Source: an uncultured Gammaproteobacteria bacterium
GTDB lineage: Bacteria; Patescibacteriota; Microgenomatia; UBA12405
Assembly (NCBI GenBank): GCA_964405765.1
Contig: CAYOPC010000002.1
Location: forward strand, 1-51,026
DNA: 51,026 nucleotides
Direction: 5' to 3'
Of the stretch, positions 4,695 through 51,026 are shown one piece after another; the first letter of the stretch is position 1; each line of letters begins with the position of its first letter. Both the position numbers and the translations under genes were made by a program. The notes beneath the pieces were generated by a model. That model saw only the letters and a program-made list of their open reading frames with translations. It did not search any database and was not told where the DNA came from.

Positions 4695-5096
4695 ATGTTA
4701 CAACCAAGTCGTACTAAATACCGAAAACAATTCCGGGGTAAAATGCGGGGTAATTCCAAGGGTAATTTAGTTTCTTTTGGAGAATACGGCCTTAAAACCT
4801 TAGAATGTGGTTGGATTACTAGTAACCAACTCGAAGCTGCTCGTAGAGCTATTGCCCATGCTACCAAAAGAAATGGTCGTATGTGGGTCAGAATCTTCCC
4901 CGATAAACCTATCACTGAAAAAGGTACTGGTACTATGGGCGCTGGTAAAGGCGACGTCAAAGGTTACGTTGCTGTTATTAAACCGGGTCGGGTTATGTTT
5001 GAAATTTCTGGTATTAACCAAAAGGAATCACACGAAGCTCTTAGATTAGCTGCTGCTAAGTTACCGGTTGTTTGCAAAATAGTTGCTAAAAAATAG
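4695..5096 (+). CDS. rplP: 50S ribosomal protein L16
   Basis: 133 aa; [15 protein letters not shown]... canonical uL16 N-terminus. Confidence 0.95.
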
Positions 5097-5107
5097 GAGT
5101 AGATTTT

Positions 5108-5308
5108 ATGAAAAAAACTGATAAAATTTCCTACAGACAAAAAACTCAAAAAGAACTCCAAAAAGATCTTTTCGATTTAAAAAAGAGTTTAATCGAAGCC
5201 AAGGCTAAATTTACTACTGGCAACCTTACTGATACTTCTGTCTTTACTAAAATTAAGCGTCAAATCGCTTTAGTCCTAAACTTTTTAAGTCAAAACAATG
5301 AAAAATAA
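5108..5308 (+). CDS. rpmC: 50S ribosomal protein L29
   Basis: 66 aa helical Lys-rich protein in the conserved slot between rplP and rpsQ. An AGGAG lies upstream, one of the few SD-like motifs in the cluster. Confidence 0.85.
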   Translation: MKKTDKISYRQKTQKELQKDLFDLKKSLIEAKAKFTTGNLTDTSVFTKIKRQIALVLNFLSQNNEK

Positions 5309-20178: not shown

Positions 20179-21267
20179 ATGAAAAAGAAAAAAGAAATTC
20201 AAAAAGGTGCTACTGTTGGTGCTAATCAAAGTCAAAAAAATGAAGCTGTCCGTGTGGCCATGGAACAAATTACTAAAGCTTTTGGTGACGGTGCCATTAT
20301 GAAGATGGGGGCTAAACAGGCCGATATGTCCATTGAAGTTATTCCTACTGGTTGTTTACCTCTTGATATTGCTCTTGGTGTTGGCGGTTTGCCTCGCGGC
20401 CGGGTTACTGAAATTTTTGGCCCGGAAGCCTCAGGAAAAACTACTGTCTGTCTTCACGTTATTGCTGAAGCTCAAAAACTTGGTGGTACTTGTGCCTTTA
20501 TTGATGTCGAACATGCCCTTGATCCACTTCGTGCCTCCACTGTCGGTGTTAATCTTGATAATTTGCTTATTTCTCAACCGGACAATGGTGAACAGGCCTT
20601 AGAAATCGTCGAAACTCTGGTTCGCTCCAATGCGGTTGATGTCATTGTTCTCGATTCTGTTGCCGCCTTAGTTCCCAAAGCTGAAATTGAAGGTGAAATG
20701 GGGGATTCTATGATGGGTGTTCAAGCTCGTCTTATGTCTCAAGCTCTTCGCAAACTCACCGGGGCTATTTCCAAATCCAAGGCCGTGGTCATCTTCACTA
20801 ATCAAATTCGCCAAAAGATCGGCGTTATGTTTGGTAATCCCGAAACTACTCCTGGTGGTTTAGCCCTCAAATTTTATGCTTCAGTTCGGATTGATTTGCG
20901 CAAAATTGCCAACATTAAAACCTCTTCCGGCGATGCCATCGGCTCTCAACATCGCGCCCGAATTATCAAAAACAAAGTTGCTCCGCCGTTTAAGGAAGCC
21001 GAATTTGACATTATGAACACCGAAGGTATTTCTGTCTTTGGCGGTTTAGTTGATTTAGCTGTTCAGCATGGTTTAATTACCAAATCCGGCGCTTTCTTCA
21101 AAGTCGGTGATCAAAATATTCAGGGCCGTGAAGGTGCTAAAAAATTCTTCAAAGAAAATCCTAAAATTGCCCAAGATTATCGTGACAAAATTTGGGACAA
21201 AATCAAAAATGCGGCTGAATCCGGTGAAATCCAAAAGTCTGCCCAGGATTCTGCCAATGAAGAATAA
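20179..21267 (+). CDS. recA: Recombinase RecA
   Basis: 362 aa; GPEASGKTT Walker A, LDSVAAL, and other typical RecA core motifs. Confidence 0.97.
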
Positions 21268-28401: not shown

Positions 28402-28709
28402 AAGCCTTCAAAGAAATTGTTAAGCCGAATTTTGTTTATGTGTCATCTATCTCCTCTCTCTACCTAAGACTCTCAAAGATCAGATCTTGACGTCTCAACT
28501 TGAGATTTCCACCAGAAGGCTGCTCGTTTCATATCAGCTCGCCGTAGCTTCTTGCGAAGGCGGCCCGCTTACTCGTCTCTGTAGCATTGCCGTTCAGTCA
28601 CCCAAACCCCTACATTTTCAGGTTCTGTATCTTTTGTGGTTCGGACTTTCCTCCCCTCGGATCGCCTTAGCTTTCCTCAGGGTAGACACTTCAATTTCTT
28701 TGAAGACTG
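28402..28709 (-). ncRNA. rnpB: RNase P RNA, bacterial type A-like, compact (about 308 nt)
   Basis: The reverse complement contains GGGGAGGAAAGTCCGAACC (the CR-I / P4 5' strand) and ACAAAATTCGGCTTAAC (the CR-V / P4 3' strand). A perfect 14-bp P1 joins 28692-28705 to 28406-28419. The region is G+C-rich. The track ORF 28487-28720 is spurious. The ends are approximate. Confidence 0.85.
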
Positions 28710-48285: not shown

Positions 48286-49107
48286 ATGAATTTTTCCCAA
48301 AATTTCATCAAATCGCCCCAACTGGTCTCTCAACTTCTTCAATATAGCCATTTAAATCCCGGTGATACGGTAGTTGAAATTGGTCCGGGCCAAGGGATTA
48401 TCACTCAAAAATTATTAGACATTGGTTGTCAGGTTATTGCTGTCGAAAAAGACCGTCGCTTAATTAGTGAACTCCAAACCCAATTTTCTGATTATAAAAA
48501 TTTTAAACTAACCAACAGCGATTTTCTTTTTTGGTCACTACCAAAATCTCCCTACAAAATATTTTCCAACATTCCCTTTTCTATCACCGCTCTGATTATT
48601 AATAAAATTCTCAAATCAAACAATAAACCGACAGAGATGTATCTCATCTTGCAGCAAGAAGCCGCTGAAAAATTTTGCTTATTTGACGATATTAATAATC
48701 AGGATGCCATTTTAGTTGCTCCGTTTTATCAGGTTGAAATTTTAGGCGATATCGATCGCACCGCTTTTACTCCCAAACCTCAAGTAAATATTGTTTTCAC
48801 TAAATTTAGTTTGTTAAAAAATCCCTTATTGGAATTACAAAATTACCAGAAATTTCGGGATTTTATTATTTTCGGTTTTAATCAATGGAAACCCAATATT
48901 TTTGAAATTTACAAAAAAATATTTTCCTACGATCAATTTAAAAAAATAAATCATCAGCTGAAAGTGAGTTCACTCAAACCAACTCAACTAAATTTTAACC
49001 AATGGTTGGGTTTATTTTCTATCTACCAAGAATTTGTCCCCAATATCAAAAAACGCCTTGTTGTTGGTTTCGAGAAAACCCATTTATCTCATGTCAAATT
49101 ACCATAA
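48286..49107 (+). CDS. rRNA adenine N6-dimethyltransferase family protein, closer to Erm than to KsgA/RsmA
   Basis: 273 aa; SQNFIKSPQLV, EIGPGQGIIT (SAM site), YKIFSNIPFSIT. The C-terminal FNQWLGLFSIY parallels ErmC FEQFLSLFNSY as I recall it. Confidence 0.75.
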   Translation: MNFSQNFIKSPQLVSQLLQYSHLNPGDTVVEIGPGQGIITQKLLDIGCQVIAVEKDRRLISELQTQFSDYKNFKLTNSDFLFWSLPKSPYKIFSNIPFSITALIINKILKSNNKPTEMYLILQQEAAEKFCLFDDINNQDAILVAPFYQVEILGDIDRTAFTPKPQVNIVFTKFSLLKNPLLELQNYQKFRDFIIFGFNQWKPNIFEIYKKIFSYDQFKKINHQLKVSSLKPTQLNFNQWLGLFSIYQEFVPNIKKRLVVGFEKTHLSHVKLP

Positions 49108-49226
49108 TAATTGTTTTCCCCATTGAATTAATCTGTAGCTCGATATACACTCCAAGTATTATAGAAAAATATATATAGAAGCATATAGCGTTTTTATATA
49201 AATTTTCCCTGTACCTGAACAATATA

Positions 49227-49821
49227 GGAAAGAGGTGAAAAAGTTTTGTTCTGTAACCCTCGCGTCCGATCGCGCTACTATCACTACATAGCCGAAACGA
49301 CCTGAGAGAGGAGGCAAGCCGTTGCACTAACATACGCACACCGACACAACGTCTTTTCGAGTGGAGAAGAACCCCCTTAGTATATTCGAATCTCAGCAAT
49401 AGAAGTGCTCCCTTAGTGGAGAAGATCTTCTGATGATGCATCAGGAAGGTTTCGAATAAGCTATCTGGGTATTCACCATTCATGTTTAGAGGTCAAGCGA
49501 TCAATGGATGCTTGAAAGGGGCTAAGAACCCTGATAGTCTGTCATCAAGACAGCAGAAAGTTTGGTGGTCCATTGGACTAGTTAATCTGGTCGCGCACAC
49601 GGCAGCCGCCTGAGGTGAAATGCACTTAGCCTTAAGGCGACTATGGTAATCCATCCTGGATCACTCATCCGCCGGGCCGATTGCCTCTGGTTGGTAACCC
49701 AAAACTGAATAGTTCTCGCGTCATTTTGACCCAACCATTGGGCCAAGGAAAAGCTTCGCGCGCGTCTCGTCGCCCGCAAGCCACTCCACGGTGTCATCAG
49801 TAACCTTCACTCTTTCTTTCC
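49227..49821 (+). ncRNA. Candidate large structured RNA of unknown class
   Basis: A G+C-enriched island with no credible ORF and many short hairpins. A closing helix joins 49227-49239 to 49806-49821. Several G.U pairs are valid only on the plus strand. Strand and ends are tentative. Confidence 0.5.
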
Positions 49822-49833
49822 CGACTTACTCTA

Positions 49834-49888
49834 GCCTGAGGCTCTGTATTATTGACTCGCAAAGTGCGAACAACAATACATCCTCAGG
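49834..49888 (+). terminator. Long imperfect hairpin followed by a T-run, between the candidate RNA and the convergent gene
   Basis: CCTGAGG...GTATTATTG...TCGCA-AAG-TGCGA...CAACAATAC...CCTCAGG, then GTTTTCC. It could terminate both convergent transcripts. Confidence 0.5.
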
Positions 49889-49896
49889 TTTTCCAT

Positions 49897-50418
49897 TTAA
49901 ATTTCCTTAAACGTTTCAATTATTTCATCTACCTTTGGATCGTAATTTGTATTTACCAAAGTAATATAAACATTTCCAATTTTCTTTACTGTCACATTTT
50001 TATAAGTGCTGTCGTATTTCTTTTGATATTCCGCCTCATTTGTCCAAGCTTCTATTGCCAAATCGTAAGATTGACCCCCACCATATATCAGCGCCACCGC
50101 TTTTTCCCAGCCATACATATTTTCTTTATCGGTTAATACTTTATATTTTGCCGGATAAGAAATTTCAAAACCATATTGTTTATTAGTATAAGTTTGCCAT
50201 CCGTTCGGTAAGCTTGATGTTGGTTTTACTGTTGGTGTTATTGTTTCAGTTGGCAACGTAGTCCCTGAAAGAGTGTCTGCTACAACCTTTGGTGACTCTG
50301 TAATAGATACAGCTCCGGGTTTTTCTTTTCCTTTTTGAGTTCCGTAATAATAAGCAAATCCCGCACTCACTCCGATTAATAAAACGATTAAAACAATCTC
50401 CATTAAATTCTTTTTCAT
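49897..50418 (-). CDS. Hypothetical membrane-anchored extracytoplasmic protein
   Basis: Start moved to ATG 50418 (MKKNLMEIVLIVLLIG...), which removes the overlap with the NUDIX gene. One TM, a Thr/Pro linker, then a globular domain with no recognised family. Confidence 0.5.
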   Translation of the reverse strand: MKKNLMEIVLIVLLIGVSAGFAYYYGTQKGKEKPGAVSITESPKVVADTLSGTTLPTETITPTVKPTSSLPNGWQTYTNKQYGFEISYPAKYKVLTDKENMYGWEKAVALIYGGGQSYDLAIEAWTNEAEYQKKYDSTYKNVTVKKIGNVYITLVNTNYDPKVDEIIETFKEI

Positions 50419-50434
50419 AATTAACAAAATTATA

Positions 50435-50878
50435 CTAGCTATTCCAACCGCTTTCAAAAAACGGTATTTTATCTTGATATTTTTGCCATGCCTCTTTTAT
50501 ATAAGGCAATAAATTTCCTGGCAGATTATCCACATCAAACCATCTTAAATCATCACATTTGTCTGTTTCTCCAATAGTTATTTCTCCTATCCATTTTTCA
50601 CACACAAAGAACAAATCCACATATTCCTGATCTGATGATTTTCGATGAATTACTACTGCCGGAATTAAATCTTCTTTTTTAACTACAATTTTTGCCTCCT
50701 CCATTGCCTCCCTAACCATTGCTTGGGTTACTGTTTCGTTACCATCCAAATGTCCCGCAACTAAACTATATTTTCCATCCATCCAACCAGTATTAAACCT
50801 TCTAGATAATAAAATTTGATTATCTTTTTTCAAAAATAAATAAACCGCCGATCTTAATTTAAATCGTTCTTCTTCCAT
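50435..50878 (-). CDS. NUDIX hydrolase
   Basis: 147 aa; NUDIX box GHLDGNETVTQAMVREAMEEAKI. Confidence 0.85.
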   Translation of the reverse strand: MEEERFKLRSAVYLFLKKDNQILLSRRFNTGWMDGKYSLVAGHLDGNETVTQAMVREAMEEAKIVVKKEDLIPAVVIHRKSSDQEYVDLFFVCEKWIGEITIGETDKCDDLRWFDVDNLPGNLLPYIKEAWQKYQDKIPFFESGWNS

Positions 50879-50973
50879 AGATAATTTTAATAAATCTTTT
50901 TGTTAAGAGTTTACCAAAAAGTTCGAACCGCATTCTCGCCGCGCCTCCACCGGCGGTACGGGGCGACAAACTG

Positions 50974-51026
50974 TTACCCCACATGGATTCGAACCACAAT
51001 TACTACGTTCAGAGCGTAGTGTCCTA
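50974..51026 (-). tRNA. tRNA, 3' two-thirds only (anticodon CUG, Gln by the standard code); 5' part lies beyond the window
   Basis: The minus strand reads ...CTACG-CTCTGAA-CGTAG (U33, CUG, A37), T arm TGTGG-TTCGAAT-CCATG, acceptor 3' strand TGGGGTA, discriminator A. CCA is not encoded. Acceptor pairing cannot be checked because the 5' strand is outside the window. Confidence 0.6.

Follow-up and report, generated by a model that had tools for sequence, protein, structure and literature searches.

A candidate lineage-restricted structured RNA gene between an Erm-like methyltransferase gene and tRNA-Gln(CUG) in Microgenomates

The window analysed here is a stretch of 51,026 nucleotides (nt) from a bacterium of the Microgenomatia (contig CAYOPC010000002.1). 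It contains a G+C-rich block at positions 49227-49892, which lies between an Erm-like rRNA adenine methyltransferase gene (48286-49107, plus strand; Pfam RrnaAD) and a convergent gene for a 186-amino-acid (aa) protein of unknown function (49897-50457, minus strand). A first-pass annotation made from the sequence had proposed that the block is a large non-coding RNA of unrecognised class, and the question raised by the locus is whether it is an RNA gene and of what kind. The block, probably together with a leader from position 49108, is quite probably a separate plus-strand gene for a structured non-coding RNA of an uncatalogued family restricted to Shapirobacteria/Woesebacteria-type Microgenomates. 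The family has a fixed chromosomal position between the Erm-like gene (or the Erm-like gene plus an LCP gene) and a tRNA-Gln(CUG) gene. Position and architecture are conserved, helices are compensated, the plus strand folds better than the minus strand and no coding frame is conserved. On this sequence evidence the block is considered to be real and new as an RNA class, while its transcription from an own promoter, its termination at a hairpin and its function are inferred.

With the Erm-like protein as anchor, approximately 170 loci were collected from Shapirobacteria- and Woesebacteria-type Microgenomates. Eighteen distinct family sequences were found in these, forming about eight subfamilies of 300-1200 nt which are mostly unalignable with one another. 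Contigs of over a dozen further samples carry the complete 789-nt intergenic region without any difference (100% identity) and provide no comparative information; samples with the identical contig come from anaerobic digesters and sludge and include ERZ27257431, JGI 3300010355, SRR8925803 and SRR10769912. Homologues sought by blastn and nhmmer are present at the syntenic position in related Microgenomates, with three detected at the sequence level, namely L019/L029 (Erm 83% identical), L028 (84%) and L188 (78%). Distant members, comprising L030 (= L026), L032, L035/L042, L037/L038/L039, L040 (= L111) and L021/L025/L043, could not be aligned to the window by nhmmer and were identified from their position and architecture. 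Another class, compact at about 300 nt (L045, L052 (6035-6341), L115 (= L048), L113 and L051), is located 3' of an LCP-family gene inserted after the Erm-like gene. The tRNA-Gln(CUG) gene, on the opposite strand, was the constant right-hand landmark in every locus checked with enough sequence, with variable cargo genes inserted between it and the RNA. Neighbours of the block across the loci are the Erm-like (RrnaAD), LCP (LytR_cpsA_psr) and NUDIX genes, genes for small unknown proteins and tRNA-Gln. The Erm proteins of lineages keeping the RNA unit are 55-85% identical, and the last ~65-100 nt of the RNA are the part still detectable between distant members inside each subfamily, the 3' end being the slowest to change.

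The members share a common order of elements. From 5' to 3' these are an A+T-rich leader, a purine-rich Shine-Dalgarno-like strand, GAAAGGAGG-type motifs, a CCGACA-type motif, the motif AAAACUGAAUA with a hairpin after it whose 5' arm is pyrimidine-rich, a junction of the form (A/C)UCCAC, a pyrimidine-rich strand which is the partner of the purine-rich one in a closing helix (P1), and a long hairpin, G+C-rich at its base, with a T-run behind it. Motifs of the GAAAGGAG type are 30-fold enriched in the family blocks.

Evidence for an RNA fold was obtained from the sequences taken singly and from comparison within subfamilies. The minimum free energy of the block is 3.2 standard deviations below that of dinucleotide shuffles, and all 16 members tested fold far better than their shuffles, with a mean z of -5.6 for the plus and -3.9 for the minus strand. 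The plus strand folds relatively better than the minus strand in every one of the 16 (sign-test estimate ~1.5e-5). This bias, together with the T-runs which follow the 3' hairpins on that strand, assigns the transcript to the plus strand, as had been favoured in the first-pass annotation. Within subfamilies, RNAalifold identified 11 pairs changed on both sides with pairing kept between L113 and L051. For L035/L042 it predicted 130 pairs, and 3 of roughly 20 substitutions fall in pairs, all 3 preserving the pairing.

The 5' strand of the long-range closing helix P1, GGAAAGAGGUGAA (49227-49239, plus strand), is purine-rich and resembles a Shine-Dalgarno sequence, and its 3' strand, UUCACUCUUUCUUUCC (49806-49821, plus strand), is pyrimidine-rich, resembles an anti-Shine-Dalgarno sequence and is followed by the conserved CCGACUUA. 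The two strands, which had been paired by eye, pair in both the minimum-free-energy and the centroid fold of the window. P1 also appears in single-sequence folds of L040, L052, L115, L113, L051 and others, and in the consensus of L035/L042. Equivalent helices of 9-17 bp are found in all subfamilies with differing sequences (5'/3' strands GGAAAGAGGUGAA/UUCACUCUUUCUUUCC, GGAAGAGGUAAGU/ACUUACCUCUUCU, AGAGAAGAGAGGUUUUU/AAAAACCUCUCUUUCUCU, AGAGAGUGGUGGUG/CACCACCACUUUCUUU and GAUAAUAAAUAAGGAAGG/CCUUCCAAAUUUCUUAUC). The helix covaries between subfamilies: duplexes of cognate strands have an energy of -17.3 kcal/mol compared with -13.1 kcal/mol for non-cognate ones (permutation p = 5e-5, 14 sequences), a test made on short windows. 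A naive genome-wide search for long-range purine/pyrimidine helices was too noisy.

A second landmark is the 11-nt signature motif AAAACUGAAUA (49701-49711, plus strand). In the form AAAA[CT]TGAATA it is found exactly in 8 of the 18 members, from four otherwise unalignable subfamilies, and it is 204 times as frequent as in 2 Mb of flanking sequence (Poisson p = 1e-16, for a motif discovered on the same data). Every member with the motif has a hairpin ~15-37 nt after it, rich in pyrimidines in the 5' arm and in purines in the 3' arm. In the window this is HP-A, CCCAA-CCA-UUGGG (49730-49742, plus strand), located 18 nt after the motif. Stems of this type include GUCCCA/UGGGGC, CUCUC/GAGAG, CUCUCC/GGAGGG, UUUUCCUCU/AGAGGGAAA, UUUUCCUAU/AUAGGAAAA and CUUCCU/AGGAAG, giving at least seven different stems with that of the window. 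A conserved small protein read through AAAACUGAAUA was considered and rejected, as stops end the frame after only a few codons in L035, L042 and L045. A motif mimicking the anticodon loop of tRNA-Gln was likewise rejected, as only CUGAA is in common and the U33 position does not fit.

The G+C content of the block is 0.47-0.53 in 300-nt windows compared with ~0.33 in its surroundings. Among 600-nt windows, that at 49247-49846 has the highest G+C content in the whole 51 kb (0.50; mean 0.36, standard deviation 0.034, z = 3.9), in agreement with the enrichment first reported. The accompanying remark that only tRNAs and RNase P RNA form other such islands held for the RNase P RNA region and was slightly too strong, since the runners-up also include recA (20179-21267), a coding gene.

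That the block is instead a decayed protein gene, or a gene in another genetic code, is barely credible. Its one point of support is that several public assemblies annotate a 129-aa hypothetical protein overlapping the RNA (window 49094-49483, minus strand). This open reading frame (ORF) matched only itself among 1.84 billion representative proteins, and no homologue was found for the 71-aa minus-strand ORF; both had been judged to be without domain-like sequence at the outset, when it was also seen that stops interrupt every frame of the block, as they do. The ORFs are not conserved in L019, L028 and L188, and 1-nt indels occur between the window and its relatives inside blocks that are 100% conserved. 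Almost invariant blocks of 30-60 nt stand beside a gene whose Erm protein is only 83% identical, a pattern which is not codon-like. Comparison of the subfamilies by tblastx gave two marginal matches only and nothing meaningful, and the ORFs behind Shine-Dalgarno motifs have no peptide common to the subfamilies. A check for protein decay thus gave no protein-level signal in ORF searches or tblastx, and the 129-aa gene call is almost certainly spurious.

If the block is an RNA gene, it could belong to a known class. A cmscan of all 4227 families of Rfam 15 gave no match to the block at gathering scores. At E ≤ 10 nothing was found in 49000-50000 except a chance match to SCARNA7 outside the block, and seven related loci had no match at E ≤ 1. 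The same permissive scan recovered the divergent RNase P RNA of the window (E = 4e-23, 81 bits), so that the search is able to detect divergent RNAs of the same genome, and because this RNA is placed at 28405-28702 the block is not RNase P. Detectable ROOL, GOLLD, OLE, raiA, HEARO, transfer-messenger RNA (tmRNA), 6S, signal recognition particle, RNase P and group I/II intron RNAs are excluded by this result, and the description of the class as unrecognised therefore holds. No tmRNA was found by ARAGORN in the window, as had been expected, or in the related loci. In the library searched, no paper was found on a structured RNA class from candidate-phyla-radiation bacteria, and nothing on the present RNA family.

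Several candidates were also rejected on other grounds. 6S RNA is a rod of ~180-200 nt in which a closing and a terminal stem flank a large central bubble; the present RNA has a closing stem, but its predicted interior is multi-branched, its length is 300-1200 nt and RF00013 gave no match. Omega RNAs of TnpB/IscB and retron or other reverse-transcriptase-associated RNAs do not apply, as no nuclease or reverse transcriptase gene adjoins the block. A nuclease guide RNA was considered for the compact class, in which the 374-aa neighbour is an LCP-family enzyme and not TnpB. CRISPR, TIGR and ToxI arrays were dismissed because only a few short two-copy repeats and no regular array are present.

The interior of the RNA is a mosaic of modules. 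The variable middle domain, module A (49341-49590, plus strand), begins with the CCGACA motif and contains a long-range pairing of UAUUCGAA (49384-49391) with UUCGAAUA (49452-49459) as well as hairpins at 49432-49446 and 49539-49553, and an inverted repeat, I1, is recorded for it. It is found only in the window and L028, between which two hairpins are compensated or replaced; L019 and L188 carry a different middle module, and L028, at 1.2 kb, holds the middle modules of both the window and L019. The block ACGGCAGCCGCCUGAGGUGAAAUGCACUUAGCC...GGUAAUCCA (49591-49661, plus strand) is nearly identical in L019, and its hairpin AUCCA-UCC-UGGAU (49649-49661) is kept with a changed stem in L028 (AAUCC/GGAUU) and L188 (CAUC/GAUG). 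An orphan half-helix, CGCCGGGCCGA (49670-49680, plus strand), pairs perfectly with UCGGCCCGGCG ~90-100 nt upstream in L019, L028 and L188. The window copy does not have the ~85 nt that give this strand, the UCGGCCCGGCG partner and the intervening sequence being deleted with a junction at a GTAATCCATC direct repeat. The G+C-rich 3' domain GCUUCGCGCGCGUCUCGUCGCCCGCAAGCCACUCCAC (49743-49805, plus strand), which ends in the junction before P1, has two differences from L019 over ~60 nt, is replaced in L028 and is absent in L188; the (A/C)UCCAC element before the P1 3' strand is present in the compact class too. L188 is also without the entire AAAACUGAAUA/hairpin module. Compared with the window, near-identical blocks thus alternate with unrelated segments in L019, L028 and L188. 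Related observations are a perfect tandem duplication of ~120 nt inside the RNA of L032 (4985-5225, plus strand) and a duplicated hairpin module in L038 relative to L037.

The small helices listed by eye in the first-pass annotation had mixed outcomes. The hairpins at 49649-49661 and 49730-49742 and the 55-nt hairpin with its T-run (49835-49892) are present and are kept with changes in relatives, and the helix at 49427-49448 is largely conserved in L028. The helix at 49539-49553 is present in the window, with a different hairpin at the same place in L028, and that at 49261-49274, though replaced in L028, is found without change in L019. The helix at 49352-49370 is not kept in L028, and that at 49494-49514 is present in the window with no alignable counterpart in any relative. 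Two of these small helices are not conserved. The proposed structured RNA of ~600 nt is highly folded, as claimed, but has no single fixed fold, since interior modules vary between close relatives.

This mosaic bears on a further explanation, by which the block is no functional RNA but a hypervariable remnant at a tRNA integration hot spot, composed of element debris or a miniature inverted-repeat transposable element (MITE) in which terminal inverted repeats would mimic a closing helix, with its G+C content and hairpins derived from foreign DNA. The region between the Erm-like gene and tRNA-Gln is indeed a variable island with cargo that differs per lineage, the modules are mosaic and duplicated or deleted at direct repeats, the RNA is missing in close relatives, and P1 has few G-U pairs (14/198) and no strand bias. 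Against this, position, orientation and order of elements are constant over Erm identities of 55-85% while the cargo changes on the far side, helices change by compensation, the plus strand folds better in all 16 members and the 11-nt motif survives amid diverged surroundings. Each locus carries a single copy, and neither the rest of the 51-kb window nor 985 kb (~1 Mb) of related loci yielded a second one; a MITE or other mobile element was rejected on this single syntenic copy and on the terminal strands, which differ between lineages. No similar DNA was found by blastn in phage and plasmid records. Three exact-motif scans of viral contigs gave one chance match only, in an unrelated G+C-rich coding region, and a metagenome scan with a 24-nt conserved pattern gave no match. 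Debris of this kind is regarded as quite improbable.

A number of findings nevertheless weigh against a structured RNA gene. The RNA is missing at this locus in the close relatives L027 (Erm 85% identical), L022, L024 and L046, and it is regarded as dispensable or accessory. Whole modules are lost with no obvious consequence, in L188 the one with the signature motif and in the window one half of a helix, and such losses are unusual where the activity of an RNA depends on a precise fold. Both the motif and the windows used for P1 were picked by eye from the data on which they were later tested, and related pairs share P1. P1 alone is without strand bias, and a purine/pyrimidine inverted repeat could be a DNA-level feature. 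As the subfamilies are unalignable, structures were compared by RNAalifold within subfamilies and by own scripts; MAFFT alignments across subfamilies were structurally inconsistent, with differing hairpin registers, and the alignment of the compact class was poor (423 columns). The start, end and strand of the transcript are all inferred. Strong arrangements of Shine-Dalgarno motif and start codon leave room for some translation, and a small in-frame ORF is common to L019, L028 and L032 but not the window. In L027, an A+T-rich ORF for 96 aa of unknown function (4874-5164, plus strand) replaces the RNA, with both flanking genes, also that of the 186-aa protein, kept.

The arrangement of start codons gives rise to the other main alternative, a small-ORF messenger or leader-type RNA. 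In this, the P1 5' strand would load ribosomes onto a short ORF independent of its sequence, the clamp would control loading and the remaining fold would be regulatory or stabilising, comparable to hok-type type I toxin mRNAs and Erm leader attenuators. In most members, as read by eye, the Shine-Dalgarno-like strand has a start codon 5-10 nt behind it, and P1 would sequester this strand once its 3' partner is made. In the window, a TTG-started ORF of 19 codons (49246-49305, plus strand) begins 7 nt after the strand. The first short ORF has 19, 19 and 17 codons in the window, L019 and L028, with start and stop positions kept despite an interior which is frameshifted or replaced. A second, perfect GGAGG motif of the Shine-Dalgarno type, GAGAGAGGAGG, precedes a two-codon mini-ORF (TTG CAC TAA; 49304-49330, plus strand), which is kept in L019 (TTG AAC TAG) and L028 (TTG CAC TAG). 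The in-frame ATG...N-T-G ORF of L019, L028 and L032 behind a strong Shine-Dalgarno motif also speaks for translation. On the other side, the peptides are not conserved across subfamilies and are not hydrophobic toxins. Compact members have a Shine-Dalgarno-preceded plus-strand ORF of at most 8 codons, with L045, L052 and L115 essentially without a usable ORF. There is no downstream target, as the presumed terminator faces the convergent gene or the tRNA, and the unit is downstream and not upstream of the Erm-like gene. Shine-Dalgarno-like runs are, moreover, expected wherever purine/pyrimidine helices occur. A messenger or leader of this type is unlikely.

The small ORFs common to the three loci are located on the plus strand at L019:6225-6299 (24 codons), L028:5581-5661 (26 codons) and L032:5240-5410 (56 codons). 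They have related N-termini, two with M-x-H-T-N-T-G-P-P and the other with N-T-G-Q-Q, and the spacing from the ATG to a conserved CAACACNGG differs by multiples of three. They may represent a real micro-protein embedded in some copies of the RNA.

For the RNA gene itself, the predicted limits of the transcript are given by the leader and the 3' hairpin. The A+T-rich leader (49108-49226, plus strand) starts directly after the Erm stop codon, contains the conserved CTGTACCTGAACAAT and is ~85% identical in L019, L028 and L188. In compact members a leader of the same type (TTGACCCCTTT...) comes after the LCP gene and, being found behind a different upstream gene, it is part of the RNA unit rather than of the gene upstream; the leader is conserved within classes irrespective of that gene. 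Transcription would start from a promoter-like pair in the leader, TTGAAT (49123-49128) and TACACT (49146-49151) with a 17-nt spacer on the plus strand, a pair not flagged by a promoter consensus scan of the window. The 3' hairpin of ~54 nt (49835-49892, plus strand), CCUGAGG...CCUCAGG with the apical UCGCA-AAG-UGCGA followed by UUUU, is presumed to be an intrinsic terminator and the 3' end of the RNA. Covariation with L019, L028 and L188 is seen in the base and the middle of its stem, and L035 keeps the apical UCGCAnnnUGCGAA as well. A simple terminator scan, which counts at most 20 stem pairs, allows loops of 3-8 nt and requires ≥ 5 T among the 8 bases that follow, missed it. Palindromes between the promoter-like region and P1 were seen in L115/L052 (AATTATTTAAAATAATT), L113/L051 (ATATTACA...TGTAATAT) and L021/L025/L043 (ATATTGATAAAGCTTCAATAT), and may represent operator sites or 5' hairpins.

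The RNA would accordingly consist of a long P1 clamp, formed by its purine-rich Shine-Dalgarno-like 5' strand and pyrimidine-rich anti-Shine-Dalgarno-like 3' strand, which may protect the RNA ends. The clamp would enclose a multi-branched interior with family-wide landmarks only in AAAACUGAAUA with its hairpin, the GGAGG-type motifs and the junction before the P1 3' strand, and the long conserved 3' hairpin would terminate the transcript. Interior modules appear to be quickly gained, lost, duplicated and replaced, and the 660-nt copy of the window would be an expanded G+C-rich variant of a ~300-nt core. The Shine-Dalgarno-like elements, exposed or clamped, might engage a ribosome-related or other RNA-binding partner. 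A function as a stable trans-acting scaffold or decoy, bound to such a partner by these elements, is put forward tentatively as the likeliest one. A more specific proposal is that this new class of large, modular candidate-phyla-radiation RNAs, with a clamp mimicking the Shine-Dalgarno/anti-Shine-Dalgarno duplex and further exposed GGAGG elements, targets the translation machinery, by titrating the 30S subunit or a platform protein such as bS21 or as a decoy or cofactor for the adjacent Erm-like enzyme; this is unlikely. GGAAAGA, the 23S target motif of Erm in the A2058 region, recurs in the P1 strand of the window subfamily. A triple helix or alternative pairing of an upstream CCCCUUU with P1 was rejected, as no consistent complementarity was seen by eye. 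The protein bS21 adjoins the Shine-Dalgarno/anti-Shine-Dalgarno helix of the 30S subunit, and P1 looks like such a duplex; a link of the present RNA to bS21 would be pure speculation.

In behaviour, the closest analogues appear to be ROOL, GOLLD and OLE. One report describes these as large non-essential RNAs, often beside tRNA genes, with a conserved 3' region and a variable 5' region in GOLLD, and mentions that the structure of OLE suggested sequestration of the ribosomal protein bS21/RpsU (PMC12286853). ROOL and GOLLD are highly structured, non-coding, separate units of hundreds of nt, often near tRNA genes and non-essential. The present RNA similarly adjoins tRNA-Gln, is dispensable and has a 3' end alignable within subfamilies. 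It differs from them in that neither family model, by which their conserved multi-pseudoknot core is recognised, matches at E ≤ 10, and in that it is chromosomal and syntenic and was not found in the prophages or viral contigs searched; its core sequence is much less conserved and its host lineage is within the candidate phyla radiation. OLE is likewise a large structured RNA proposed to be a ribonucleoprotein scaffold; however, no match to the OLE model and no ole-associated protein genes nearby were found, and lineage and architecture are different.

Other systems are similar in part. With hok-type mRNAs and Erm attenuators the present RNA has in common a long-range 5'-3' pairing which would sequester a Shine-Dalgarno sequence beside a short ORF, and an erm-family gene adjoins it. 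However, its ORFs show neither conservation nor hydrophobicity, compact members are without them, and no antisense RNA gene is evident. An Erm leader-peptide attenuator was rejected, as the unit is downstream of the Erm stop codon and has its own presumed terminator, with the LCP gene in between in the compact class. CsrB/RsmZ sponges also carry several GGA/GGAGG motifs over a structured, fast-evolving, non-coding sequence, but the present motifs are not repeated hairpin-loop GGA sites and no CsrB/Rsm family of Rfam matched.

Candidate-phyla-radiation bacteria have tiny genomes that are almost unexplored for non-coding RNAs. If the present reading as an RNA gene is true, an RNA of 300-1200 nt at one position is added to the large bacterial RNAs of unknown function (OLE, ROOL, GOLLD and raiA), a group for which recent structures have revealed unexpected RNA-only assemblies. 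A fast-changing modular interior in a conserved clamp would then be a natural experiment on the needed parts of a large RNA. If the block is non-functional debris, it provides a lesson on how integration hot spots generate G+C-rich, hairpin-dense sequence. In practical terms, the stretch is mis-annotated by gene callers as a 129-aa protein.

The remaining observations concern the surroundings of the block. The sequence from the RNA to tRNA-Gln(CUG) (49897-51026 in the window, where the tRNA is a partial copy at 50974-51026, minus strand) is a variable island, and likewise in L019, L021, L022, L024 and L027. Its cargo, depending on lineage, consists of genes for the 186-aa protein and NUDIX, for 110-aa and 214-aa proteins, for GIY-YIG, for SNase, a hydrolase and DUF8173, or for HD. 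Such an island fits integration at the 3' end of a tRNA gene.

Relatives of the Erm-like methyltransferase number in the hundreds and come mainly from Microgenomates, Dojkabacteria and Saccharibacteria-type genomes. Where neighbours were examined in the closer Microgenomates loci, its gene keeps a conserved housekeeping neighbourhood (NTP transferase, TrmD, Dus, RlmN and Obg), which suggests that the enzyme has a native role in rRNA modification and is not an acquired macrolide-resistance factor. The RNase P RNA of the window (bacterial class A; 28405-28702, minus strand) covers 298 nt of a 367-position model and, with 81 bits, is below the gathering score of 100. It looks like a reduced candidate-phyla-radiation type which default annotation would miss.

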